The notes under the pieces are model-generated. The model worked only from the letters and a program-made list of their open reading frames with translations. It was not told where the DNA came from and did no database searches. The translations under genes and the position numbers were made by a program. DNA of 64,000 nucleotides from Parcubacteria group bacterium (GTDB lineage: Bacteria; Patescibacteriota; Minisyncoccia; UBA6257; Colwellbacteraceae), in the NCBI GenBank assembly GCA_041649615.1, contig JBAZMT010000001.1, positions 26,981-90,980 of the forward strand. The letters run 5' to 3'. Shown here in pieces: positions 12,127 through 61,628 of the stretch. Within the stretch, counting starts at the first letter, position 1, and each line of letters starts with the position of its first letter.

Positions 12127-12603
12127 TCAGTTACTAATTATCTTTAGTTCTTTAAGCCATTCGCACCAAACGGGTTCAATTCCGGGATTCTGTTCCCAAT
12201 CCTCTCGGCTTATTTGCCCTTTGAGATATTTTTCGGTTTTTAACGCCAATAAATTCAGTTCGTCTTTATCGTAAAAACCGACTTGTTTCGTTTCTTCTTC
12301 GCTGGCTTTGATTTCTCCGTTTGTATTTACTTCATAAATTTTCCAATAATGCCAATTTCCGTCTTCGCGGCGGCAATGATTTTCTTTCCGTCCTTCCGTA
12401 AGAAGTTTAATATCGTTGCCAATCAAGCCGACTTCTTCTTGCAATTCACGTTTGGCGGCCGATTCAAAGTCGTCTCCGTCTCCATCCACGTGCCCGGCAG
12501 GAGGAGCGAAACCGAAAGGAAATCTTTTTCTTTCAATTAAAAGCAGCCGATCATTTTTCCAAACCAACATGCCAACGCTTTTATGATCGCATCTATCGGG
12601 CAT
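12127..12603 (-). CDS. NUDIX hydrolase
   Basis: Canonical Nudix box GHVDGDGDDFESAAKRELQEEVGL (G-x5-E-x7-REUxEExGU). Confidence 0.75.
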   Translation of the reverse strand: MPDRCDHKSVGMLVWKNDRLLLIERKRFPFGFAPPAGHVDGDGDDFESAAKRELQEEVGLIGNDIKLLTEGRKENHCRREDGNWHYWKIYEVNTNGEIKASEEETKQVGFYDKDELNLLALKTEKYLKGQISREDWEQNPGIEPVWCEWLKELKIISN

Positions 12604-12604
12604 A

Positions 12605-12991
12605 TTATTGCAGTTTTTTGGCTAATTCTTCCGGAGAAGAAATTATTTCTCTGAATAAGACGTGCCGGCACAATTCATCATCTTTTGCCAAAGCGTATAA
12701 CGGCTTTCCGGAGGCTACCGCGTAGCCAATCTCCAGAGTTGTGCTGTTGCCGGAGTATCCGTCCTTATTGTAGACAAAAACGGCATCGGCCATTTTAATT
12801 TTATAGAAATGATCATGGGTCAATCCCAGAGCGATGAATTTTTGATAATCTTCCGACAGCCTTTCCCATTCTTCCTGCCCGGAATGGAGATACGGTTCAT
12901 ATACGACTACGCCCAATTCTTTAAGTTTTTTTGCAAATTCCCTTATTTCCGGTTTAAAACGGCGACTGCCGCACATTACGATTGATTTCAT
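12605..12991 (-). CDS. nucleoside 2-deoxyribosyltransferase-like protein
   Basis: 128-aa Rossmann-like pattern: MCGSRRF N-terminus and ADAVFVYNKDGYSGNSTTLEIGYAVASGKPLYAL C-terminus, as in the N-deoxyribosyltransferase-like superfamily. Stop is 2 bp from the NUDIX start. Confidence 0.5.
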   Translation of the reverse strand: MKSIVMCGSRRFKPEIREFAKKLKELGVVVYEPYLHSGQEEWERLSEDYQKFIALGLTHDHFYKIKMADAVFVYNKDGYSGNSTTLEIGYAVASGKPLYALAKDDELCRHVLFREIISSPEELAKKLQ

Positions 12992-15872: not shown

Positions 15873-18800
15873 TTGGCAAATAATTGTAAAATAAAGCAAA
15901 TGCACCATAAATCTAGAAAACTGCGTTCCGTGTTTTTGATTGCCGGGGTTGTTGCGTTACTTACGGGTACGGCGTATGCCGCGAACGTTGCTCGCGACAT
16001 GCTTGTTTACCGCGGCACCATTACATCGGTTCCGGTCTATAGGACTCATGACGGATCGACTTTCTCAAGTGAAAGCTCCGCTTTGTCCGTCAGCGTCGCC
16101 ATTAACAACATAAAAGTCGTTTCGAAACCGGGAACGGGCGCCGTTGAAAAAGTAATGTGCGCGACCAACACCTCTAACGACGTGTATTGCCAAGTTTACA
16201 ATGGAGCTTCTTGGGGAAATTCCATTACGCTTTCAACCGCCACCGGAGGACAAAGAGCTTTCGATCTGGCCTACGAGAGCGTTTCCGGTCGTGCCGTGGC
16301 TTGTTATCGCAGTCCGTTGAATACCCAGATGCCGTATTGCGCGATTTGGGATGGGTCAAGTTGGGGGACGCCTTTTACCGCAACGGCGACAGGTTCGGCT
16401 CTTACGACAATGCGATTGATTTCCGATCCGAACTCAAATTATATCGCGCTCATTACCCGCAACGGCGGGAACGACCTCAATACGCAAATTTGGAACGGAT
16501 CTTCTTTCAGCGCGATTCAATCCTTGACGGCGAACGGCTCGAATTGCGCAGGGTGTTTGTCCTATGCTGGCGCGTGGGAGGGAAGTTCCGGAGATTTTGT
16601 AGCCGGATGGTTTGATAACACTACGGGTAATTTACAAAGCAAAGAGTTCAATAAAACATCGGGTTGGGTAGCGACAATTAACAATGTAATTACTTCTGTA
16701 TCGACCGCCAATGTGTGGATTGAAATGGCTTCGCGACCTTTTGCGAACGATATTCTCGTGGCGGTTTTGGACGGTAGTAGCGTATTAAGAGCCAATCATT
16801 GGTCGGGCTCTAACTGGGATACAACAGGAACGACGGCAATAACACTCGCTTCGCCGATTTCGGGCACGGTTTCGTCCACAAACCATTTATTCGACATCGC
16901 TTACGAGCAAAGGGCGGATTACGACGCAGTCGTCGCTTACGGCTCGACCGCGAGCAGTTTGCAATACCGCGTTTGGGATACCGGCACGAATACTTGGGGG
17001 ACCGCCGCAACTCTGCCGACGGCTTCGCAGAACGCGACGTGGCTGCAACTGGCATCGGATCCAAAATTGGCAAATATCATGTTGACGCTGCTTGGTTCTA
17101 CGAACATCGGCACTCTTGAATGGAACGGGAACGCCTGGGATCCTTCGTGGACGGCGCAAAGCACCGCGAGCAACGATAACCGCTGGAATGCCTGGTTCGC
17201 CTACGATAAAGAGGACGAGAACGATCATGCGCCGTCTATCGTCATAAATAGTGCCGCAGAGAAAACGAACGGATCGGGACTCGTCGATATTTCCGTTAGC
17301 GTGAGTGACGTCGGTTTGGATAACGCAAAACTAAAAGTGGAATACGGTGCGTGCGATGGAACTTGGCAAAACGCCGCGATTACAAGCTTAGTTTCAGCGA
17401 CCTATGGAACTCCGGACATCAGCGGCGGCGATTATCAAATAGGCACGAATACTCCGATTGTCACAAATCCAGCTATCACGGGCTCTAGCGCGAACACACT
17501 CACATTTTTATGGGATTCAAAAACGGATCTGGCAAACGGAAACGCAACGTATTGTTTAAGATTCACCGGACATGACGGTGTAAGCGCCACGGAAATTCCG
17601 CCGACGACAACGTTGATGATAGATAACGTGAGGCCAGCAGTCCCTACAGATTTTCAGGGAGTCGGCACAACTTCGTCTATACAGCACTTAAACTGGACGT
17701 CCGCGTCAGATACGAATTTTAACCATTATGAATTTTGGTACGGCACAGACCAAACAAAAGTTGAAGATCAGATAAGTTCTCCGGGCGAAGCCGTGGAGTT
17801 CGGCCCGGCTGATTTTCCAACCCTAAATAATGCGGCGACTTATCACGCCCATATTATGGAGCTTGACCCGCTAACGACATATCACTTTGCGTTGTGGGCG
17901 GTTGACGATTTTGGAAATGAAACAATGGCGATGCTCAAGTCAGGTTTGGACGCTCCAAATGATTCGGGCGACTCGCTTACTTATACGACTCTTGAAACGG
18001 ATTTTAACGCCACTCCGATTTCGGCTGTTCCAACGGATATGGAACAAGTGGAAAATGACACGCGATATGTAACTTTTAGCGCGAGGATTTACGACATAGA
18101 TTTGGATGATGTTTTGATGCGCGTGCGATTTGCGACGGATGCAGACGGTTTTGCGACTTTTAATAATGCCAATATTGTTTCAGCCGAAGTCATAAATCCC
18201 GTAACGGACCCCGAAGGTCCTTGGGATGACGATAACATTGCCATAGATAATACGTTTGATTTTCAGGTTGGAAAAGGAAATCCCATAAGCCTCAATGAGT
18301 TTACGCCTCACGAAGATCTTGACGGAAACTCCGAAGGCGCCGTTCTTCTGATAATTTGGGACACAAAAGCCAGTGAACTTAATGGTTTTGCCGGAGACGT
18401 AAAAATTCAAGTAACGCCAATGGATATAAACGGTCAGATCGGTTCAGTTTACACAAGCGCCGAATTTGAAATAGACGATAAATATCCCACTTTGACCGAG
18501 ATTATTCCCGTACCGCAATATACGAACGACGCAACGCCAAGTTACACTTTTAATTCGAACGATGTTGCGACCCTTGAGTACGATGGATCTTGCAATAGTT
18601 CAACGACGTCAATATCGGCGGGAAATAAGACAATAACTCTTTCCGTTCCGGGCGAGGGAACGTATGACGACTGCACTATCACGGCCACGGACGATAATTA
18701 TAATTCGGATCCCGTTTTATCGGTTCTACATATCACTCCGTTTGTCGTTGATACGACTTTGCCGACAGGGTTAGCGAGTCTTGCGGCCGGAACTTCAACA

Positions 18801-19520
18801 ACCACAACCCAACAATTAACCTGGAATTCCGCAACAGACGCGAATTTTGATCACTATGAGATATGGTACGGAACGAATCAGCCTGATGTGGAGAATCGTG
18901 CAGGTTCGGCAAAAAAATGGAGCGTCACGAATGATGTGACGCTTGGTATTGCGGTAACCACCGAAACAACGATTAGCGGATTAACCTCTGGAACCACTTA
19001 TTCCTATAAAATATGGGCGGCTGATATTGCGGGAAACGAAGCGACGATTTCCGGCATTTTTAAAGCCACGAGTTCTTCTGGCGGAGGAAACAATAACGGA
19101 GGGAGTGGGAAAGGAAGTTCCTATATTCCACCACCGCCCTTACCTATAGAACAAGCAAGTCTCGGAGAGCTTATAAATCAGGTAAGGATTCTTATCGGGC
19201 AATATGTCGCCGCCGGCGGCACGCTTACGCCGGGTATGGTCGCTTTTCTTGAAACAAGCAATATTTTGGCGCCATCATCGTTGCCGGTGAGGGATCTCCA
19301 ATTCGGAATGATCGGCGAGGACGTGCGTACTTTGCAGAGAATTTTGATTGATCTGGGATATGCCATACCATCCGGCGCAACCAGCCGGTTCCTATGGGAA
19401 ACGCAAGCAGCTCTTTCCGCCTATCAGCGCGACCATAAAATTTCTCCGGCAGTGGGAATGTTCGGCCCGGTCACAAGAGCCTATATGAAAGAAGCTGGCG
19501 TCCCCGGGATTTGGTGGTGA
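15873..19520 (+). CDS. large secreted surface protein with repeated Ig/FN3-like modules and C-terminal peptidoglycan-binding (PG_binding_1-like) domain
   Basis: 1215 aa. Signal peptide LIAGVVALLTGTAYAA. Internal repeats NWTSASDTNFNHYEFWYGTDQ / TWNSATDANFDHYEIWYGTNQ. C-terminal LQRILIDLGY...AYQRDHKI resembles PG-binding helix-bundle repeats. Confidence 0.7.
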   Translation: MANNCKIKQMHHKSRKLRSVFLIAGVVALLTGTAYAANVARDMLVYRGTITSVPVYRTHDGSTFSSESSALSVSVAINNIKVVSKPGTGAVEKVMCATNTSNDVYCQVYNGASWGNSITLSTATGGQRAFDLAYESVSGRAVACYRSPLNTQMPYCAIWDGSSWGTPFTATATGSALTTMRLISDPNSNYIALITRNGGNDLNTQIWNGSSFSAIQSLTANGSNCAGCLSYAGAWEGSSGDFVAGWFDNTTGNLQSKEFNKTSGWVATINNVITSVSTANVWIEMASRPFANDILVAVLDGSSVLRANHWSGSNWDTTGTTAITLASPISGTVSSTNHLFDIAYEQRADYDAVVAYGSTASSLQYRVWDTGTNTWGTAATLPTASQNATWLQLASDPKLANIMLTLLGSTNIGTLEWNGNAWDPSWTAQSTASNDNRWNAWFAYDKEDENDHAPSIVINSAAEKTNGSGLVDISVSVSDVGLDNAKLKVEYGACDGTWQNAAITSLVSATYGTPDISGGDYQIGTNTPIVTNPAITGSSANTLTFLWDSKTDLANGNATYCLRFTGHDGVSATEIPPTTTLMIDNVRPAVPTDFQGVGTTSSIQHLNWTSASDTNFNHYEFWYGTDQTKVEDQISSPGEAVEFGPADFPTLNNAATYHAHIMELDPLTTYHFALWAVDDFGNETMAMLKSGLDAPNDSGDSLTYTTLETDFNATPISAVPTDMEQVENDTRYVTFSARIYDIDLDDVLMRVRFATDADGFATFNNANIVSAEVINPVTDPEGPWDDDNIAIDNTFDFQVGKGNPISLNEFTPHEDLDGNSEGAVLLIIWDTKASELNGFAGDVKIQVTPMDINGQIGSVYTSAEFEIDDKYPTLTEIIPVPQYTNDATPSYTFNSNDVATLEYDGSCNSSTTSISAGNKTITLSVPGEGTYDDCTITATDDNYNSDPVLSVLHITPFVVDTTLPTGLASLAAGTSTTTTQQLTWNSATDANFDHYEIWYGTNQPDVENRAGSAKKWSVTNDVTLGIAVTTETTISGLTSGTTYSYKIWAADIAGNEATISGIFKATSSSGGGNNNGGSGKGSSYIPPPPLPIEQASLGELINQVRILIGQYVAAGGTLTPGMVAFLETSNILAPSSLPVRDLQFGMIGEDVRTLQRILIDLGYAIPSGATSRFLWETQAALSAYQRDHKISPAVGMFGPVTRAYMKEAGVPGIWW

Positions 19521-21305: not shown

Positions 21306-21893
21306 ATGCAGTCTTCAAATATAACAATAGAGCAAGCTCGAGAGTTGGTGCGTAAATATATCACGAGTCCTGTAACCAAATTACATCTTTTAGAAACGGA
21401 AGCTTTTATGCGATCTTTGGCAAAAAGATTTGGCGAGGACGAAGAAACGTGGGGAATAATCGGATTGCTTCATGATATAGATTGGGATTTAACAAAAGAC
21501 AATTACGCGGAGCATTGTATTAAATGCCAGGAAATATTGAAGGAAGCCGGGGCAAGTAATTTCCTGATAGAGACGATTGTCTCTCACGGATACTCCAATG
21601 AAGCGATTCCCAAGCTGAAGGATAAACAACGCGCGACAACTTTGGAACATTGTCTTGTCGCGGCTGAAACTTTAACGGGACTTATCATCGCCTCCGCGTT
21701 AATGACGTCCGATAAAAAACTTAAAAGTCTCTCAATTGAGAGTTTGAAAAAGAGATTTAAAGAGAAAAAATTTGCCGCGAAGTGCGATAGGAATTTGATT
21801 TTGGAATGCAAAAAAGCCGATATTCCGCCAGACGAGTTTTTACAGATCGGCCTAACTTCATTACAAAGTATTGCCGAAGAATTGGGCTTTTAG
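21306..21893 (+). CDS. HD-domain phosphohydrolase
   Basis: H...HD motif (GLLHDIDW) and downstream metal ligands in SHGYSNE. 195 aa. Confidence 0.7.
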   Translation: MQSSNITIEQARELVRKYITSPVTKLHLLETEAFMRSLAKRFGEDEETWGIIGLLHDIDWDLTKDNYAEHCIKCQEILKEAGASNFLIETIVSHGYSNEAIPKLKDKQRATTLEHCLVAAETLTGLIIASALMTSDKKLKSLSIESLKKRFKEKKFAAKCDRNLILECKKADIPPDEFLQIGLTSLQSIAEELGF

Positions 21894-23642: not shown

Positions 23643-24575
23643 ATGAACGAGATTGCCAAAGGAATAGACCTTTCGGCTTTGAAAGGCAATCAATACGACT
23701 GGTTACTCGCAAGACTCATTACGGAAGGGACGGAAACGCCGAGTCCGCAGAAAGAATCCGCGTGGAGGCTTCCGCCCGTAACTTTGGCCTACGACTTAAG
23801 GGTAGAAACTGGCGAAGCAGACAGGATTTTACTACCCGTGCCGAAGAGCAGTTCAAAAAACGGTATTTTCTCCGCTATCGGGGAAATAACGGCTTTTATG
23901 AACGGCGTCGTGACCCACGAAGGGTTAATGGAGTTTGGCTGCGACTGGTGGGAAAGATGGACGAGCGAGGAATATCTTAAACATTGCGAACTCGATCTTA
24001 TGCCCGGAGAATTGGGGCCCGGATCGTACGGAGCGGCGCTTCACGATTTTCCGACAGCGGAAGGAAAACCCTTCAACCAGGTGAAACACGTGACGGAGCA
24101 AATAAAAGAGCTCCCGTATCTTCGTACGCATCTTTGGACCACATGGATTCCGCAGTATATCGGAAGAGGCAAGGGCAAGAAGAGGCAAGTGGCGGTGGCT
24201 CCGTGCCATGGCACTATCACGGATTTTGTTCCGAACATACAGACGAAAGAGCTATCGCTTTATCACGTACAGCGCTCGGGTGACGTGCCGGTCGGCGTGA
24301 AATGGAACATAATCCAATATTGCGCGGCTCTTTTGATGATGGCGCATGTCACCGGCTATAAGCCCGCCTTCTACTACCATATCATTCTTGACCCGCACAT
24401 CTATGCGCGACAGGTGGAACCCGTGAAGGAATATCTCAAATTCCCGGAAAAAGATTTTCCGAACCTTGTTCTCAAAAATACCGACATCACGGATATCTTC
24501 GCTTTTCGTAATACGGATTTTGAGCTCGAAGGTTACCTCAAGAGGCCGTACATCAACATACCGACACCCGACTGA
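23643..24575 (+). CDS. thyA: thymidylate synthase family protein (ThyA-like, divergent, N177-type)
   Basis: Start chosen at the ATG preceded by a strong RBS (taaggaggaactatcgaATG). Catalytic APCH cysteine motif, QRSGD, KWNIIQY (Asn retained) and LDPHIYARQVEPVKEYL align with ThyA PCH / QRSxD / PFNIASY / GDxHxY. A Thr follows the conserved Arg of the RR pair. Confidence 0.75.
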   Translation: MNEIAKGIDLSALKGNQYDWLLARLITEGTETPSPQKESAWRLPPVTLAYDLRVETGEADRILLPVPKSSSKNGIFSAIGEITAFMNGVVTHEGLMEFGCDWWERWTSEEYLKHCELDLMPGELGPGSYGAALHDFPTAEGKPFNQVKHVTEQIKELPYLRTHLWTTWIPQYIGRGKGKKRQVAVAPCHGTITDFVPNIQTKELSLYHVQRSGDVPVGVKWNIIQYCAALLMMAHVTGYKPAFYYHIILDPHIYARQVEPVKEYLKFPEKDFPNLVLKNTDITDIFAFRNTDFELEGYLKRPYINIPTPD

Positions 24576-24594
24576 CTTCCGAAGGAGGATAAAT

Positions 24595-25548
24595 ATGAAT
24601 GCAATGCCTAAGGTTGCGATCATCGCGGCAGTATCGCTCAACGGCGTAATCGGAAAAGAGGGGAAAATCCCTTGGAAAATTCCGAGCGATCTCAAGAGAT
24701 TCAAAAAGATCACAATGGGACATCCTGTCCTTATGGGGAGGAAAACCTACAGGTCTATTGGAAAGCCTTTGCCCGGAAGGATGAACATTGTTCTTACAAG
24801 GAACCGCGATTGTTCCTTAGAGGGATGCGTCGTGGTCCATTCTTTTGACGAGGCGTTTGTCGCGTGCGACAAGAACGAAACACTTTTCGTAATTGGCGGA
24901 GGAGAGGTTTATCGCGAAGCGTTAAAATACGCGAGCGAGTTTCATTTCACGAGAGTAAATAAAGTGATTGAGCACGGGAACGCTTTTTTCCCGGAATGGG
25001 ATCAAGACCAATGGGAGGATGTCACTTTTCCGGAGTATTCTGATCTTTTGCAAGAAGGTGACGAGGTCTCCTACACTTTCAGGTCGCTCCGGCGAAAAAA
25101 TCTTTATACTACCGACAATGCCCGGACAGCCGATCAGCGCGAAGCAATGGAACGTATAATGGCCGGAGGCAAATGCAATTTCTGCTTGCCTGATCTCGGA
25201 GAAGAGCACAAGAAGCCGATCATTTACGTGGGCGAGCACTTCAAAGTAACGGAGAACCAATGGCCTTATCCGGCTGCCAAGAACCACATTCTTATCATTT
25301 CCAAGACTCACGTCAGTCGTCTTGCCGATCTGCCAAAAGGAGCGGGAGACGAATTGATACGCATCGCCTGTATGCTTCAGGAGACGTATAGCGTGAAAGG
25401 CGGAGCAATCTGCATGCGGTTCGGAGATTCAAATCTGAACGGTGCGAGTGTGGAGCACTTTCACGTTCATTTTCTAGTTCCGGACCCGGAAAAAGAAGCT
25501 CTCTTTTTCTGGATTGATAAAAAAGACAAAATAATAAGCCCCGTCTGA
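24595..25548 (+). CDS. folA: dihydrofolate reductase fused to a C-terminal HIT (histidine-triad, Hint-like) domain
   Basis: Start at the ATG after RBS ggaggat. N-terminal approx. 165 aa is DHFR (VAIIAAVSLNGVIGKEGKIPWKIPSDLKRFKKITMGHPVLMGRKTYRSIG, VIGGGEVY). C-terminal approx. 150 aa has CNFC and the histidine triad EHFHVHFLV. Confidence 0.75.
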   Translation: MNAMPKVAIIAAVSLNGVIGKEGKIPWKIPSDLKRFKKITMGHPVLMGRKTYRSIGKPLPGRMNIVLTRNRDCSLEGCVVVHSFDEAFVACDKNETLFVIGGGEVYREALKYASEFHFTRVNKVIEHGNAFFPEWDQDQWEDVTFPEYSDLLQEGDEVSYTFRSLRRKNLYTTDNARTADQREAMERIMAGGKCNFCLPDLGEEHKKPIIYVGEHFKVTENQWPYPAAKNHILIISKTHVSRLADLPKGAGDELIRIACMLQETYSVKGGAICMRFGDSNLNGASVEHFHVHFLVPDPEKEALFFWIDKKDKIISPV

Positions 25549-25568
25549 TCAGACGGGGTCTTTTTTTA
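25538..25568. terminator. bidirectional rho-independent terminator
   Basis: gccccgtctgatcagacggggtc hairpin flanked by A-run and T-run, between the convergent genes DHFR-HIT (+) and the dCMP-deaminase fusion (-). Confidence 0.65.
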
Positions 25569-26391
25569 CTTTGACTATCCCGATGCCGTTTTCCGCAAAA
25601 ATGCGTTTTGCGTCCAATCTTGAATATCCTTCCGTGACGTAAAGCGTTTTAATGCCCGCTTGTGAAAGAAGATTGGCACAAGGGGGACAAGGGAAAGTGG
25701 AAACGAACACTTCTGCTCCGGCAAGGCTTATTCCTTTTTTGGCCGCTTCAGCAATAAGGGCGGCTTCGGCGTGAATGGAGGAAGAAAGTTCAATGTGTTC
25801 GCCGGCGTTAAACGGCGTTCTCGGGTCACCCGAATAATACGGTTCAAGTTCGGTTGGCAGATGATGGTTATGGGCGGCAAGCAAAATATTTCCATCACGA
25901 AACGCGACCGCTCCGATTTGCCGCCACCAGTCGGAAGACAATTCTTTTTCACGAAAGGCGGTTTTCAATACGGAGGAGTCAAAATTTTCGCTTGTTATTT
26001 CTTTATCCCAAAAAACAGGTTCTTCCTGAAGAACGTTGAATTTATTCCAACGAAGAAAAACCGAATCAAAAACAATGTTCGTTTCGGTTGGCAATAACTT
26101 TGCGATTTCGGAAGAAATATCTTCTTTCGGCATGATAATGGGGCCTTTACGAGATTCGGCGATAATGTCGTTTATGTCGGCGTTTTTTATTTCATCTAAA
26201 ATGCCGAGAGACCTGATGGAAGAGGAAATTTCTTCGTTTTCCAGAGCGCGCATGTCTCTTTTGAGATATTCAATCGCACTTATTATGGTCTTATCGGGAA
26301 TCAGGAGAGTTCCTCCCGCGTATTTTTTGAAGAACTCAATATACCCGCGATGCAGAACCGGAACGTAGGCAACAATGGTATTTTTTTTCAT
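25549..26391 (-). CDS. dCMP/cytidine deaminase zinc-binding domain protein with approx. 150-aa N-terminal domain of unknown function
   Basis: C-terminal HAEAALIAEA and TFPCPPCANLL are the CMP/dCMP deaminase Zn ligands (H-A-E and P-C-x-x-C). The N-terminal half has no recognised motif. Confidence 0.7.
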   Translation of the reverse strand: MKKNTIVAYVPVLHRGYIEFFKKYAGGTLLIPDKTIISAIEYLKRDMRALENEEISSSIRSLGILDEIKNADINDIIAESRKGPIIMPKEDISSEIAKLLPTETNIVFDSVFLRWNKFNVLQEEPVFWDKEITSENFDSSVLKTAFREKELSSDWWRQIGAVAFRDGNILLAAHNHHLPTELEPYYSGDPRTPFNAGEHIELSSSIHAEAALIAEAAKKGISLAGAEVFVSTFPCPPCANLLSQAGIKTLYVTEGYSRLDAKRIFAENGIGIVKVKKDPV

Positions 26392-27062
26392 CAGCTGATT
26401 CCCGATAATTCGTTAAGCGCCGAATTAATCTTCTCTTTGACTTTGGCAAGAGTATCCGTATGCAATTTGTGTATTTTACCGGTCGTAGAAGTTTCCGCTT
26501 GAGGGGGAAGAATCAAAATATCTTTTGCCCAATTTTTGATTTCTCCGATCATTCCGTCTCTGCCGCCTTCGTGCAAGAAATCGGTGGATTCAGACAGGAT
26601 GAGAAAATCCGGTTTGATGAGTTCGCCCAATCTCCAGCTATATTCTTCCTCTTGCTTGATTATCACGTAATCCACATCTGTCGTGTAGGTTAACATTTCA
26701 GCGCGTTCATCTTGCGGGACTATCGGGCGATGTTCTCCTTTTCTCTTTCTGACTTCCGTATCGCTGTCAACGGCCACGATTAGAATGATGTCGTCCTTGT
26801 CCTTGCTTGTTTTTCTGGCGACACTTTCAATGGCAGACAAAAAATATCGGCAATGTCCGATATGAAACAAATCAAAAGTGCCGCTTAAAAAGACAATAAC
26901 CTTACCCAATACTTTTTGGGCATTAACTATCTCAACCAACCTGTCATAAGAGGGAATTATCTTTGAATTTTTTCCTTCACTTATACCGTTCATGACGTGA
27001 TACCTTAAAGCTAAAGCTTGATTGTATCCAGTGTCAATTGACAAAAAATCGCCATATTTCAA
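26391..27062 (-). CDS. cytidylyltransferase-like nucleotidyltransferase (RfaE-II/TagD-like HxGH family)
   Basis: GTFDLFHIGH (T/HxGH motif) followed by VAVDSDTEVRKRKGEHRPIVPQDERAEMLTYTTDVDYVII, as in TagD / RfaE domain II. Stop/start overlap with the deaminase gene. Confidence 0.6.
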   Translation of the reverse strand: MKYGDFLSIDTGYNQALALRYHVMNGISEGKNSKIIPSYDRLVEIVNAQKVLGKVIVFLSGTFDLFHIGHCRYFLSAIESVARKTSKDKDDIILIVAVDSDTEVRKRKGEHRPIVPQDERAEMLTYTTDVDYVIIKQEEEYSWRLGELIKPDFLILSESTDFLHEGGRDGMIGEIKNWAKDILILPPQAETSTTGKIHKLHTDTLAKVKEKINSALNELSGIS

Positions 27063-51288: not shown

Positions 51289-51816
51289 TCAGACGGCGAA
51301 GAGAAGTGCCTTGTCCTTAGGAACCTTCTTGAAGACGACCTTCCCTATAAGTCTTCTCTGGTTGTCTCCGAGATGCGCTTCGGCAAAGAATCTCCTGCCC
51401 CGTAACACTCTCGGGAGCCAGAATCTGTCCGCCGGCGCCATGTCAAGAAGAGGCAAAGAGTTTCTCCAAAACCACGTGGGATTTATCATCTCTTCCGAAG
51501 GTTCCGGCATTCCGTTCCATCCGCGAAGAATGAAAACGTGCACCCGCCAAACAGATTCGCTTCCGTCAAGAGCGACATTGATGAAGTCAATAATCGCCAC
51601 TTTGCGCAAGCGAGCTTCGGAAGTCGTAATCTTCCCTTCTTCGTACGGTTCTCTCACCGCCGCTTCTAAAGGCGTTTCGCCTTTTTTGATCCGGCCGCCG
51701 TATCCGTTCCAGAAACCTTGAGCAATGCGCCTCATCTTCCATGCCATGAGAACTCGGTCTTCGTAGATCGGGAAAACGAGAACTGCCTGAGTAATCTTTC
51801 TCTCCAGTTCAGACAT
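51289..51816 (-). CDS. NUDIX-family hydrolase (divergent Nudix box)
   Basis: GYGGRIKKGETPLEAAVREPYEEGKI approximates G-x5-E-x7-REUxEExGU. 175 aa. Confidence 0.55.
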   Translation of the reverse strand: MSELERKITQAVLVFPIYEDRVLMAWKMRRIAQGFWNGYGGRIKKGETPLEAAVREPYEEGKITTSEARLRKVAIIDFINVALDGSESVWRVHVFILRGWNGMPEPSEEMINPTWFWRNSLPLLDMAPADRFWLPRVLRGRRFFAEAHLGDNQRRLIGKVVFKKVPKDKALLFAV

Positions 51817-56353: not shown

Positions 56354-58012
56354 TTAATTTTCCGGAGTGGCAGAAACAGAATTCTTTTGTCCTTTTTCTT
56401 CCTTCCGTTCTTTTTTTCTCATAACAACAAGGTAAACGATGGTGATGAGCATAAGAATAAAGAGAAGCAAGAAGAGCCAGCTGCCGGTGATTGATTCGGC
56501 GAAGCTAGAAAGAGAGGCGAGGAAATTAAATCGGCTACCACCGACAGTTACGGCAATGTAGGAATTAACCGTCTGTGCTCTTTTGGCCGCATCGGTGAAA
56601 TCAAGAGAAGAATTAAAGACGAGGTTCTGACCCTTGTCGGCGTCATCGTGTATTTTCACTTTGACGATAATGATTCCCTGACTGCCCTTTTCAACGTCTC
56701 CGATCGTGAAGGTCAAGTTATTGGCCATCCACGAGGTCGGTTTAACGTTCGCGTCCACGTATTCCGTTCCGTATGGAAGAAGGACTTTTATAACGGAACT
56801 GGTGATTTTTCCGTTTGAAGCGTTCCTATAGGTGAGAACGTAATCAATCGTGTCGCCCGCTTTGGGATCAAGATCGCTTACCGAAGGATCAAGCAAGACG
56901 CCTGAATCGTTCGTTACGACAATCGGCGGATTAACGATTATGCTGCCGCTAGCAGTTTTAAAGTATCTTATTTCACCGTAATTCGTGCCGTAGGAATTTT
57001 CCGCAACCGCGCGATAGTAATAAGTAACATTCGCGGCCAAATTGGAAACGTTAATGTAGTAGTCGTTTTGTGAAGCATAAGAAGGAACGGACACGCTTGA
57101 GGATCTGATGTAGAGATCGCTTGAAGTGGGACCGTACTCAAACCACATGGTCGCGGCAGAGCCGTTAGCGCTTACTCTTCCCTGAAGAGTAGCGGAATTT
57201 TGAAGAACGTTAGAGTGCCAAACGGTCGTTACTTGAGGAGCGTTGTAGTAAGTGGGAGGAACATAACCTCCGGAAGTATTGAAGCTCCGAGTGGAACTGT
57301 AGTCCGTGCCGTACGAATTGCGGGCAATCAACCGGTAATAGTAAGTAGTGTCTTCGTTCAAACTGTAAACCGAAGCGGAAACATTGGTGTTTCCATAATA
57401 GCTTCCGAGAGACCGAGTGCTCGTTCTCTGCGACAAATTGCCGCTTCGAGTACCGTATTCAAACCAGTATTCGGTTGAGGAACCGTTCGGGCTAACATAG
57501 CCTTCCAAAGAAGCCGAATTACGAGTGATGCTATAGGCGGAAGAAATTGAAACTTCAGGAGCACTGCCAACGGGACCCGGGGGGTTGTAACCGCCGGAAG
57601 TGGTAAAGGTTTTATCTTGACCATACTGAATTTCTCCTTGGCTGTTTTTGGCCACTACGTGAAACCTATAAGTAGTTCCCGTTTCAAGTCCGGAGATCGT
57701 TTTTGAAACAGCCGTATATCCGCTTCCGGATCCGATGGAAGAAGAGCTTGTTAACACATCAAACATGCTGGAACCGGAGGTAGTGTATTCAAACCAATAT
57801 TCGGTTGAAACGCCGTTAGGATTGACCTTTCCATTTAAGGTAACAGAACTTTGGGAAACATTTGTCGCATCGCTTGAAATAGCCGAAGGAGCGGAAGCCA
57901 AGGCTATGGCCGGGATAAGCGACGGTAAAACAGCGGTTATAGCCGCAATGGGTAATATTTTTCTAAACATAGTCATAAGGCGGAGCTTATCATAATTACT
58001 TAATTCTGTCAA
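56354..58012 (-). CDS. secreted surface protein with three tandem beta-sandwich (FN3/PKD-like) repeats, DUF11-like domain and C-terminal TM anchor
   Basis: Signal peptide; three repeats each ending ...TYYYR(A/L)(I/V)A(R/E)NSYGT(D/N)Y...F(N/K)T(S/A)GG; C-terminal hydrophobic anchor + basic tail. Confidence 0.6.
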   Translation of the reverse strand: MTELSNYDKLRLMTMFRKILPIAAITAVLPSLIPAIALASAPSAISSDATNVSQSSVTLNGKVNPNGVSTEYWFEYTTSGSSMFDVLTSSSSIGSGSGYTAVSKTISGLETGTTYRFHVVAKNSQGEIQYGQDKTFTTSGGYNPPGPVGSAPEVSISSAYSITRNSASLEGYVSPNGSSTEYWFEYGTRSGNLSQRTSTRSLGSYYGNTNVSASVYSLNEDTTYYYRLIARNSYGTDYSSTRSFNTSGGYVPPTYYNAPQVTTVWHSNVLQNSATLQGRVSANGSAATMWFEYGPTSSDLYIRSSSVSVPSYASQNDYYINVSNLAANVTYYYRAVAENSYGTNYGEIRYFKTASGSIIVNPPIVVTNDSGVLLDPSVSDLDPKAGDTIDYVLTYRNASNGKITSSVIKVLLPYGTEYVDANVKPTSWMANNLTFTIGDVEKGSQGIIIVKVKIHDDADKGQNLVFNSSLDFTDAAKRAQTVNSYIAVTVGGSRFNFLASLSSFAESITGSWLFLLLFILMLITIVYLVVMRKKERKEEKGQKNSVSATPEN

Positions 58013-60126: not shown

Positions 60127-60594
60127 TTATATGACAGAAAGCAGATTAGAGCCCGTTTGCACGAAAAAAGAAACGATGATGCCCGAAATTATGGCGCCAA
60201 GAATTATCATTATAGCCGCTTTTTTAAGCGGAACGCCGAAAACAAGCGCCATTAACGTTCCCGTCCAAACGCCGGTCAAAGGAAAAGGCAGGGCCACAAA
60301 AATAAAAAGAGCGAGACTTTCCCACTTTTTAAATCCCCAGGAATGTCTTTTGCGCGTCATATCGGTGAGCCAGGCGAAGAGCCGGTTAAAATAGTAAAAG
60401 TGATCGGCGAGCTTTTCGGCTATAAAATTCCAAAATAAAAGAAGAGGAATAACCGGCAAAAGATTTCCCAAAGTGGAAAGCAGAAACGCCTTAAGAACCG
60501 AAAAATGCCAAATAAAAACGGCGAAGGGCATTGCTCCTTCCAATTCAAAAAAAGGAGAAGCGCCAATAAGAACGGTCAACAATTCTCCTTTCAT
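60127..60594 (-). CDS. small membrane protein (COG2426-like putative small multidrug export protein)
   Basis: 155 aa, 4 TM. Family call tentative. Confidence 0.45.
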   Translation of the reverse strand: MKGELLTVLIGASPFFELEGAMPFAVFIWHFSVLKAFLLSTLGNLLPVIPLLLFWNFIAEKLADHFYYFNRLFAWLTDMTRKRHSWGFKKWESLALFIFVALPFPLTGVWTGTLMALVFGVPLKKAAIMIILGAIISGIIVSFFVQTGSNLLSVI

Positions 60595-61628
60595 CGTCCT
60601 TTGAGAAACGCGGCGCCGTCATCCGGATCAACAACCGTTATTTCTATGCCCGTACCCAATTCAAAGCCCGCCGAGATAACGATCTTCGGCTGAATTTCAA
60701 TGTGCCAGTGATAAAAAGGATAATCTTCCCTGTTCTTGACCGGAGCCGTGTGAATGAAAAAGTTATAATCAACGCAGCCTAATCTGTCTTCAAGCATTTT
60801 TAGAGATTTTTGCAAAGCTTCGGCAATGTACTTCAGGCAAGACGGACCGCAATCTTCAAAAAACGGGGAATGAATTTTAGGGAATACTCTTATTTCAAAA
60901 GGTTCCCGTGAAACGAAAGGAAGAAAAGCGATCGCTCCCCGATTTTCAAAGATAATTCGTTTTTTCTCGGCTTTTTCTTTTTTTAAAATGGTGCAATGAA
61001 CGCAAGAACCGTTTTCTTTGTAATACCGTTCCGAACCGCGCAAAGAGTGGCTTACGTCCGGAGGAACGATCGGAATGGAAATCATTTGATAATGAGGATG
61101 ATAAACGGAAGCTCCCGCCGCGAGTCCCCAGTTGTGAAATATGGAAACGTACGCGATTCGTTCGTCTCTCGCGACCATGCGGTATCTTTCCTGCATTACT
61201 TCCAAGCACATTGTCGCTTCGGCCGGAGAAAGGCGCGGAAAATTTTCATCATGGCCCCGGGTTATGACGACATCATGATAGCCCACTCCTTTCATCAAGT
61301 AATAGGGACCGTTTTTCAGGACGGCGGTTGTTTGTTCGGTACCTGAAAAAACAGCCGGATAAAGATTCGGAACGACTTGGATCCGCCAGTTGCCGCGTTT
61401 GTCCTCGCGAATCAGAACCGGTTCGGCGTTTCCCGAAGCCTGGGGATTCTCAAAAGGACATTTATCTTTCGGAACAACGATCTTTTCTTTTTTTACTATG
61501 AGCTCTTGAGGTCTTTTTTTTCGTCCGGTCGCGATAAGAACCCAATCGCCGGACACGATGTCTTGCCTGAATTCGGATCCGTCAGAGGGAACGCTGGTTT
61601 TTTTTCGGCTGCCGAAAATTCCTGCCAT
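60591..61628 (-). CDS. galT: galactose-1-phosphate uridylyltransferase (GalT/HIT-like)
   Basis: IFHNWGLAAGASVYHPHYQ (HxHxQ active site), Cys/His zinc ligands CVHC. 345 aa. Confidence 0.8.
   Translation of the reverse strand: MAGIFGSRKKTSVPSDGSEFRQDIVSGDWVLIATGRKKRPQELIVKKEKIVVPKDKCPFENPQASGNAEPVLIREDKRGNWRIQVVPNLYPAVFSGTEQTTAVLKNGPYYLMKGVGYHDVVITRGHDENFPRLSPAEATMCLEVMQERYRMVARDERIAYVSIFHNWGLAAGASVYHPHYQMISIPIVPPDVSHSLRGSERYYKENGSCVHCTILKKEKAEKKRIIFENRGAIAFLPFVSREPFEIRVFPKIHSPFFEDCGPSCLKYIAEALQKSLKMLEDRLGCVDYNFFIHTAPVKNREDYPFYHWHIEIQPKIVISAGFELGTGIEITVVDPDDGAAFLKGR

Follow-up and report, generated by a model that had tools for sequence, protein, structure and literature searches.

A single gene in the genome of a Parcubacteria group bacterium encodes a two-domain enzyme in which a dihydrofolate reductase (DHFR) is joined to a histidine triad (HIT) domain. 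The DHFR-HIT fusion gene is genuine and occupies positions 24595-25548 of a 64,000-nucleotide (nt) stretch of contig JBAZMT010000001.1 (assembly GCA_041649615.1; Patescibacteriota), which is referred to as the window. Relatives of the HIT half are always found in a gene cluster devoted to the synthesis of thymidylate (dTMP), which suggests that this clade belongs to the dTMP pathway. Our estimate is a probability of roughly 60% that the HIT half acts as a nucleotide enzyme and is coupled in function to the synthesis of thymidylate. The sequences are already public, each annotated by one of its halves only, and the fusion is undescribed in the literature that we searched.

The fusion gene and its two halves

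The gene and its parts are located as follows.
24584-24588 (+): Shine-Dalgarno sequence GGAGG, 6 nt 5' of the ATG at 24595, by direct reading
24595-25548 (+): whole DHFR-HIT fusion gene, 317 amino acids (aa) plus stop, no internal stop on translation
24595 and 25546-25548 (+): start codon ATG and stop codon TGA, by direct reading
24613-25095 (+): FolA-type dihydrofolate reductase domain, residues 7-167, by Pfam DHFR_1
25095-25100 (+): fusion junction, an A6 run inside GGCGAAAAAAT, by DNA alignment with split relatives
25096-25545 (+): HIT half, residues 168-317, by Pfam, AlphaFold2, Foldseek and family profile
25096-25167 (+): linker and N-terminal helix of the HIT half, residues 168-191, the helix covering 179-191 in the AlphaFold2 model
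25123-25125 (+): codon of R177 in the NAR motif, inside the linker and helix
25174-25185 (+): CNFC (C194-x-F196-C197), the CxxC motif typical of HIT proteins, residues 194-197
Residues 219-225 (+): TENQWPY signature of the HIT half, by sequence
25417-25425 (+): phosphate-site loop R275-F-G277, by alignment to 3oj7, HINT1 and FHIT
25456-25476 (+): histidine triad H288-F-H290-V-H292-F-L294 (HFHVHFL), residues 288-294

The initial annotation had described one open reading frame (ORF) in which a DHFR is followed by a domain with CNFC and HFHVHFL. This reading holds in the window sequence, where both parts lie in the same stop-free frame of 317 codons and neither a stop nor a frameshift separates them. 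The gene begins 19 nt downstream of the stop codon of thyA (24573-24575) on the same strand. A 100% identical protein is deposited at NCBI on a 188-kb contig under the title 'MAG: dihydrofolate reductase [Parcubacteria group bacterium]' (MFA5052491.1). The protein is also called on a 203-kb contig of the ENA (ERZ27247363 k141_511920), from which P0006, a 314-aa version starting at the second ATG, was taken. An exact look-up of the 317-aa protein in a contig index gave no match, which we read as a gap in the index and not as absence. AlphaFold2 modelled the full-length protein with a predicted local distance difference test score (pLDDT) of 91.3 and a predicted template-modelling score (pTM) of 0.77, and no solved chain spanning both halves was returned when Foldseek compared this model with solved structures. 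The halves match the Pfam families DHFR_1 and HIT, each above its cut-off.

The match to DHFR_1 (E 9.9e-53, 178.5 bits versus a cut-off of 25) covers profile positions 2-159 of 159. In Foldseek, the DHFR half superimposes on the solved enzymes of B. anthracis and E. coli (3sa1 and related entries) with a target-normalised TM-score of 0.94 and a root-mean-square deviation of 1.3 Å over approximately 165 residues at about 40% identity. The sequence contains IPWKIPSDLKRF, LMGRKTYRSI and VIGGGEVY, which represent the family motifs PW..DL..F, MGR.T..S and GGG.VY. Residues D32, F36, T40, R62, G101 and G102, which we take to be the equivalents of E. coli D27, F31, T35, R57, G95 and G96, are invariant across 23 fusions. 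Profile, catalytic acid, NADPH and folate motifs and fold all agree with the FolA type, and sequence and model describe a standard, catalytically complete DHFR that is predicted to be active. Genes for folA from the candidate phyla radiation (CPR) were shown to complement an E. coli folA deletion in a study that makes no mention of a HIT domain (PMC11974145).

The HIT half matches its Pfam family over residues 226-297 (E 1e-6, 29.7 bits versus a cut-off of 21.5) and also passes the threshold of CwfJ_C_1 (26.4 bits versus 21). Its isolated AlphaFold2 model (pLDDT 93.5, pTM 0.88) resembles Hint/HinT, other HIT hydrolases and Rv2613c with a Foldseek probability of 1.0 and E about 1e-6, and CNFC aligns with the CIFC motif of solved HIT proteins. 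In HIT enzymes, the middle histidine of the triad attacks the α-phosphate of a nucleoside monophosphate bound to a leaving group (NMP-X), and the nucleoside 5'-monophosphate is released from the resulting covalent His-NMP. H290 is the predicted nucleophile. Counted over 236 members of the HIT family in window numbering, H288, H290 and Ser/Thr285 are each conserved in 235, as is G277, and R275 in 234. The cysteines C194 and C197 are found in 230 members each, F196 in 232 and H239 in 231; R177 and Q181 near the N terminus of the half are kept in 215 and 202, respectively. The third position of the triad, 292, is more variable (H 172, Q 58, N 5). As triad, profile score and fold all point the same way, the HIT half can be regarded, at the level of sequence, as a bona fide HIT nucleotide enzyme with an intact predicted active site.

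This conservation also bears on the idea that the domain is mainly structural or regulatory, i.e. a dimerisation or nucleotide-sensing module for DHFR or ThyA with little catalysis. HIT proteins are typically dimers, and P0165, P0181 and P0209 carry a degenerate second HIT half devoid of the triad, as such a role would allow. The nucleophilic histidine, the residues next to it and those of the phosphate site are, however, retained in 234-235 of 236 members, a pattern that argues for selection on catalysis, and most members are standalone proteins. We therefore consider a mainly structural role very improbable.

The HIT superfamily is reportedly divided into three branches in a scheme by Brenner. 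When the family profile was run against the PDB, a Hint-type hydrolase ranked best (3oj7, E 9e-8), followed by Fhit (about 3e-5), Rv2613c (3ano, 7e-4) and GalT (4e-3 and weaker); the top match of the single HIT-half sequence was NitFhit (1ems, E 0.005). The designation 'Hint-like' in the initial annotation is thus correct as to the closest sequence match but fails at the residues that characterise the Hint branch. The clade shares with human HINT1, E. coli HinT and the solved proteins 3oj7, 5uvm and 6d6j the fold, the CxxC motif, the H-φ-H-φ-H-φ-φ pattern and the Ser/Thr preceding the triad. In contrast to Hint, it has Arg (R275) in place of Asn99 in 234 of 236 members and Ala, Ser or Gly in place of Gln106 (HINT1 numbering), and Gln replaces the third His in 25% of them. 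R275 also aligns with the Gln of the MQDG sequence of Fhit, and position 284, Ala in the window protein, with Fhit Gln83. Further differences from Hint are an additional N-terminal helix (NAR...Q), the TENQWPY sequence, a 2-residue loop insertion and a TM-score of only about 0.5 when normalised to the query. Because of the exchanges at Asn99 and Gln106 and the tolerance of Gln at the third triad position, the HIT half is not a Hint orthologue but belongs to a clade of its own, recognisable by the signatures NAR..Q, CPFC, TENQWPY and MRFG.

Relationship to the transferase-type branches is more distant. Rv2613c and the GalT branch have additional N- and C-terminal elements around the HIT fold, as the clade does, and give the longest structural alignments, whereas in sequence they are only marginally similar to it (E 7e-4 to 0.04). 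H-x-H-x-Q is the motif of the GalT branch. A quarter of the HIT clade carries this variant, but GalT consists of two tandem halves and most clade members of a single HIT domain; in the window protein there is likewise only one, and its triad reads H-x-H-x-H. This protein gave no GalP_UDP_transf match in Pfam, and TIGR00209 reached 13 bits versus a cut-off of 102. The Rv2613c-type ATP adenylyltransferase model NF052622 is the best NCBIfam match of the HIT half (E 7.6e-4, residues 31-147). Together with the long fold alignments to Rv2613c (3ano and 3wo5, 126-134 columns), the label 'Ap4A HIT hydrolase' given to one homologue by JGI and the His/Gln alternation at the third triad position, which resembles transferase-branch enzymes, this match would suit an Ap4A/Np4N phosphorylase or hydrolase linking alarmone turnover to folate or thymidylate stress instead of supplying substrate. 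The score of 19 bits is far below the family cut-off of 290, though, the profile E-value to Rv2613c is weaker than that to Hint-type proteins, and such an activity would not explain why thyA and the dCMP-deaminase-like gene are always linked to the clade, making this function rather improbable. A PHROGs search with the HIT half returned families of unknown function only.

Recurrence and origin of the fusion

Searches for the same arrangement in other genomes showed that it recurs across many independent assemblies. The full-length protein retrieved about 25 clusters (307-331 aa, at least 91% of the query aligned, 35-58% identity). The HIT half, used in an exhaustive profile search, retrieved 261 clusters (E≤1e-30), and a domain census placed a DHFR N-terminal to HIT in 63 of 172 strong family members. 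Fusion clusters were found in metagenome-assembled genomes of Patescibacteria and carry the GenBank label 'dihydrofolate reductase' only. The majority of the family stands alone, including all five proteins (154-161 aa) recovered with the HIT half as sole query. Members of the clade were found here in Patescibacteria only, and a scan of viral contigs for the clade detected none.

The family also occurs in other combinations. P0165 and P0181 are tandem HIT-HIT proteins of about 270 aa whose second half no longer contains the triad, and P0209 (429 aa) has the order DHFR-HIT-HIT with a second HIT-like half likewise lacking it; this arrangement is reminiscent of the pseudo-dimeric GalT. Other DHFR fusions among the homologues are P0082 (325 aa), a DHFR with a GNAT acetyltransferase, and P0106 (422 aa), a DHFR with PF04961, the formiminotransferase-cyclodeaminase C-terminal family.

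Comparison with unfused relatives shows how the window gene came about. Where the window reads GGCGAAAAAAT, split relatives carry the 1-nt longer GGCGAGAAGAAT, and the distance between conserved anchors is exactly 1 nt less in the window than in loci L001 and L002. This single nucleotide brings the HIT frame, +1 relative to folA, into the DHFR frame. The window codon orthologous to the HIT start ATG is ACA, and the DHFR stop codon of the relatives has no counterpart. Gene order is the same in L001, L002 and L005, where folA and HIT are separate genes that overlap out of frame by 32-44 nt; among five relatives with standalone HIT, the two genes either overlap to this extent or stand 20 nt apart. 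At 21 loci folA lies directly 5' of a separate HIT gene. Of these pairs, 18 have HIT in the +1 frame and 19 overlap, by 4-74 nt, lengths that rest on the chosen start codons and may be overestimates. Since two translationally coupled genes overlapping in the +1 frame become one upon loss of a single base, the fusion arose from a 1-nt loss in the out-of-frame overlap of neighbouring folA and HIT genes.

The overlaps themselves, for instance those in L046, L049, L055, L001 and L002, are unusually long and uniform for bacteria. Programmed +1 frameshifting in the split relatives, which the constant +1 overlap might suggest, seems less likely: their HIT gene starts from an ATG of its own that follows a purine-rich stretch, and no recognisable slippery site was seen. 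The metagenome sample that contains the fused form of the window also contains L005 (ENA ERZ27247363 k141_2299028), a relative with split, overlapping genes whose HIT protein is 58-62% identical.

A junction located exactly in the A6 run at 25095-25100 raises the question of whether two overlapping genes like those of L001 and L002 were falsely joined by a 1-nt homopolymer error in sequencing or assembly. With seven A residues, the upstream +1 frame would read ...SGEKN..., matching the N terminus of the standalone protein P0001 (MTSRFSGEKN). The simulated A7 sequence, however, leaves the HIT gene without its orthologous ATG, which remains ACA, and extends DHFR by 30 codons beyond its normal end to 199 aa, while a simulated A5 run deprives HIT of any start codon. 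Moreover, the identical 317-aa protein is present in two assembly records (the 188-kb and the 203-kb contig), the name k141_ suggests a MEGAHIT short-read assembly, in which homopolymer indels are rare, and more than 60 diverged fusions would make the architecture real in any case. An artefact of this kind is hardly credible. Given more than 60 diverged fusion clusters elsewhere, the DHFR-HIT architecture is real and common regardless of the reads at one homopolymer.

In a neighbour-joining tree of 236 HIT domains, the nearest relatives of the window protein are the split L002 and L001, followed by the fused P0007, P0010 and P0008. Fitch parsimony requires at least 40 changes between the fused and the split state, a number that is only indicative because the tree is noisy. 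Linker length differs between fusions, as would be expected from repeated, unconstrained joining. By these comparisons, the fusion is clearly labile in evolution.

A conserved thymidylate gene module

The genomic surroundings of the clade were examined by a BLASTP census of 56 loci from species-representative genomes and 12 metagenome loci. The former resulted from a scan of one genome per species with the peptide pattern [VLA]TENQWPY, derived from 14 closer HIT sequences. All 56 loci have a Patescibacterial gene context, with a few evidently wrong taxon labels from automated binning; L016, L018, L029, L050, L055 and L066 are titled Pseudomonadales, Gammaproteobacteria or Rhodospirillaceae and probably stem from mislabelled or contaminated bins. 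In both sets, HIT always adjoins thyA or is separated from it only by folA. A pair of genes, one deaminase-like (roughly 280 aa, including an N-terminal domain of approx. 135 aa) and one cytidylyltransferase-like (roughly 200 aa), always occurs together and faces HIT in every locus long enough to show it. In the five relatives with standalone HIT, as in the window, fmt on the opposite strand is followed by thyA, folA and HIT, and these face the genes for the deaminase, the cytidylyltransferase-like protein and pdf. Genes outside HIT, thyA and the facing pair vary between loci, and the order of the module is kept although the proteins are only 24-45% identical. No clade member was encountered outside the thyA module in the loci examined. 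The position of folA, in contrast to that of thyA, differs among the 56 loci.
folA fused to HIT: 5/56
folA directly upstream of HIT, split: 17/56
folA elsewhere in the locus: 25/56
folA not seen in the locus: 8/56
HIT fused to ThyA: 1/56 (HRH31222.1)
Thus, folA is the mobile element of the module. The HIT-ThyA protein (L042:2644-4038, P0141/P0273, 464 aa) carries HIT at the N terminus of ThyA and is named thymidylate synthase only in GenBank.

These observations bear on whether the fusion is incidental, that is, a neutral joining of a housekeeping HIT protein, a Hint-type phosphoramidase or acyl-adenylate hydrolase, that happens to reside in a thyA-folA operon and shares no pathway with it. 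Hint/HinT-type proteins are indeed the best matches by sequence and fold, the fused and unfused states interchange frequently on the noisy tree described above, and folA itself shifts within the locus. Against this stand the preservation of thyA adjacency and of the facing pair at 24-45% identity while the outer flanks change, the fusion of HIT to ThyA as well, the replacement of the Hint residues Asn99 and Gln106 with frequent Gln for the third His, and the lack of clade members outside the module in the loci examined. We regard a merely incidental association as doubtful and favour a function of the HIT half within thymidylate synthesis.

Several further features were seen in the related loci. 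In 26 of them, a second HIT-like paralogue, 'HIT2' (about 190-225 aa; e.g. L025:4503-5129, L031:4520-5146 and L026:4531-5145(-)), lies directly 3' of HIT. It has CPFC, MRFG/MRYG and HLHxN/H motifs and a C-terminal extension (...LAK...FEKLR...), gave no Pfam match and is not present in the window. The cytidylyltransferase-like neighbour forms one ORF of 438 aa with a PHO4 phosphate-transporter segment in L024:6888-8204(-) and carries an uncharacterised N-terminal extension of about 360 aa in L021:5311-6927(-), 538 aa in total.

In the window, the module comprises the following elements around the fusion gene.
23643-24575 (+): thyA, thymidylate synthase, 310 aa from ATG 23643 (Pfam Thymidylat_synt, E 4.9e-44)
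25538-25559 (no strand assigned): palindromic hairpin with T-runs on both sides, predicted on both strands with 9 and 8 pairs, 6 G-C pairs
25549-26391 (-): deaminase-like convergent gene, Pfam dCMP_cyt_deam_1 at residues 138-252
25981-26391 (-): N-terminal domain (~135 aa) of the deaminase-like gene, motifs Y-x-P-V-x-H-x-G-Y and F-L-R-W
26391-27062 (-): cytidylyltransferase-like nucleotidyltransferase (Pfam CTP_transf_like, E 2.7e-13)

The thyA frame is open from 23559, and the length of its relatives (304-349 aa) fits the ATG at 23643. The longest-ORF starts, TTG 23559 for thyA and GTG 23580 for fmt, would make these divergent genes overlap; relatives suggest ATG 23643 and, for fmt, the Met of MNFVFFGTP (23526). 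The ThyA translation displays the PCH nucleophile motif and the Asn of ...KWNIIQY..., presumably the dUMP-specifying position of E. coli ThyA. The N-terminal domain of the deaminase-like protein is conserved in all related loci and had no match in Pfam, NCBIfam, PHROGs or the PDB by sequence and profile search. The best NCBIfam match of the nucleotidyltransferase is rfaE_dom_II (E 1.3e-20, below cut-off), and the stop of its gene overlaps the deaminase gene start by 1 nt. The stop codons of the convergent fusion and deaminase-like genes are both contained in the perfect palindrome GCCCCGTCTGA|TCAGACGGGGT, and as a consequence both proteins end in Pro-Val. The hairpin is likely to serve as a shared bidirectional terminator.

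The remaining window resembles an ordinary Patescibacterial chromosome (mur/ftsW/mraY, gltX, scpAB, pgk, dnaX, P-type ATPases). It contains a second, unrelated HIT-superfamily enzyme, a separate GalT-like protein of 345 aa at 60591-61628 (-) with GalP_UDP_transf N and C domains and DUF4921, which the family profile of the fusion misses. The neighbouring genes for a Nudix hydrolase and a nucleoside 2-deoxyribosyltransferase-like protein at 12127-12603 (-) and 12605-12991 (-) may form a pair that serves deoxynucleotide salvage. Another Nudix gene lies at 51289-51816 and an HD-domain protein at 21306-21893. Two large proteins are probably located at the cell surface, one of 1215 aa with fn3 and peptidoglycan-binding domains at 15873-19520 (+), the other of 552 aa with fn3, DUF11 and purple-acid-phosphatase N-domain-like repeats at 56354-58012 (-).

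Proposed function and significance

ThyA converts dUMP and methylene-tetrahydrofolate to dTMP and dihydrofolate, from which DHFR regenerates tetrahydrofolate. The DHFR half would recycle the dihydrofolate produced by the ThyA encoded 19 nt upstream. The most likely role of the HIT half, by way of H290, would be to release or process dUMP or dCMP from a phosphoanhydride-linked precursor. Candidate precursors are dUTP, dUDP and dCTP as well as a (d)NDP-X that the adjacent nucleotidyltransferase would produce, and the released nucleotide would feed the ThyA-DHFR cycle. dUMP and dCMP are proposed because the consumers of nucleoside monophosphates in the module are ThyA (dUMP) and the deaminase (dCMP). 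Arg in place of Asn99 and the tolerance of Gln at the third triad His favour phosphate or pyrophosphate as leaving group over the amine of Hint substrates. A non-canonical dUTPase or dCTPase role would be one form of such a supply. Fusion to DHFR, or to ThyA in one lineage, may serve to co-express and co-localise the activities, and, given that HIT proteins are typically dimers, formation of a HIT dimer might also dimerise DHFR. In its full form, the proposal that the clade is an unrecognised enzyme of dTMP synthesis, a (deoxy)pyrimidine nucleotide hydrolase or phosphorylase generating dUMP or dCMP in a physical ThyA-DHFR-HIT assembly, is tentative. The initial annotation had called a functional coupling to folate and nucleotide metabolism unclear; the constant position of the clade in a thyA/folA/dCMP-deaminase-like cluster narrows this question to thymidylate synthesis.

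A number of points weigh against the coupling or its specific form. The substrate of the HIT half is purely inferred from sequence, and its nearest solved relatives by sequence are Hint-type hydrolases, not transferases. As the folA positions counted above demonstrate, physical linkage of DHFR to HIT is dispensable, and thyA is the tighter partner. The distribution is biased by the single pattern used in the scan. Roles for the nucleotidyltransferase, the deaminase N-domain and HIT2 are not explained by the proposal. Neither dut nor tmk was seen among approximately 55 scanned ORFs of the window, a stretch of 64 kb that is too short for inferring their absence from the genome.

The initial annotation knew of no characterised DHFR-HIT fusion, and in agreement with this, full-text literature searches retrieved no paper on one. 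Nor did they yield anything on the involvement of HIT enzymes in making dTMP or on the dUTPase status in CPR; one report mentions only a transfer of thyA (PMC12455944).

Several known systems invite comparison. The bifunctional DHFR-TS (thymidylate synthase) enzymes of protozoa and plants (Plasmodium, Leishmania, Toxoplasma) likewise combine an N-terminal FolA-type DHFR, a variable linker and a dimeric partner from the thymidylate cycle, with a logic of co-expression and possibly channelling in dTMP synthesis. Here, by contrast, the C-terminal half is HIT and not Thymidylat_synt, ThyA is encoded separately upstream except in the one lineage with HIT-ThyA, the system is bacterial (Patescibacteria) and the fusion is labile. 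In NitFhit of C. elegans and Drosophila (1ems), a HIT domain is also fused to an enzyme of another family encoded by a separate gene elsewhere, but the partner is of the nitrilase family and the HIT domain of the Fhit branch, as opposed to DHFR and a distinct HIT clade. The td-frd-cd genes of the dNTP-synthesis complex of phage T4 similarly encode thymidylate synthase, DHFR and dCMP deaminase together as one pathway unit, whereas the module of the window is chromosomal in Patescibacteria. We know of no HIT or cytidylyltransferase-like component in T4. By analogy, the DHFR-HIT gene would work like a bifunctional thymidylate-cycle enzyme of the DHFR-TS kind and like a Rosetta-stone HIT fusion of the NitFhit kind, while being a member of neither.

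Thymidylate synthesis is among the few biosynthetic capacities kept by the ultra-small, host-dependent Patescibacteria. A fixed extra enzyme with an intact predicted active site, repeatedly joined to DHFR or ThyA, points to a step of deoxypyrimidine supply outside the standard pathway maps. What makes the finding interesting is not so much the fusion as the orphan HIT clade that it reveals, hard-wired into the dTMP module of Patescibacteria: the fusions act as a 'Rosetta stone' that gives a pathway to a clade of 261 clusters whose members are currently labelled 'dihydrofolate reductase', 'thymidylate synthase' or 'hypothetical'. The annotation of more than 60 fusion clusters and their standalone relatives would be corrected. 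Should the HIT half prove to be a hydrolase of the ordinary housekeeping kind, what is left would be a labile operon-level fusion of modest interest. If instead the clade does supply dUMP or dCMP, it would, together with the deaminase N-domain and the nucleotidyltransferase, constitute a new dTMP-supply route in ultra-small bacteria.

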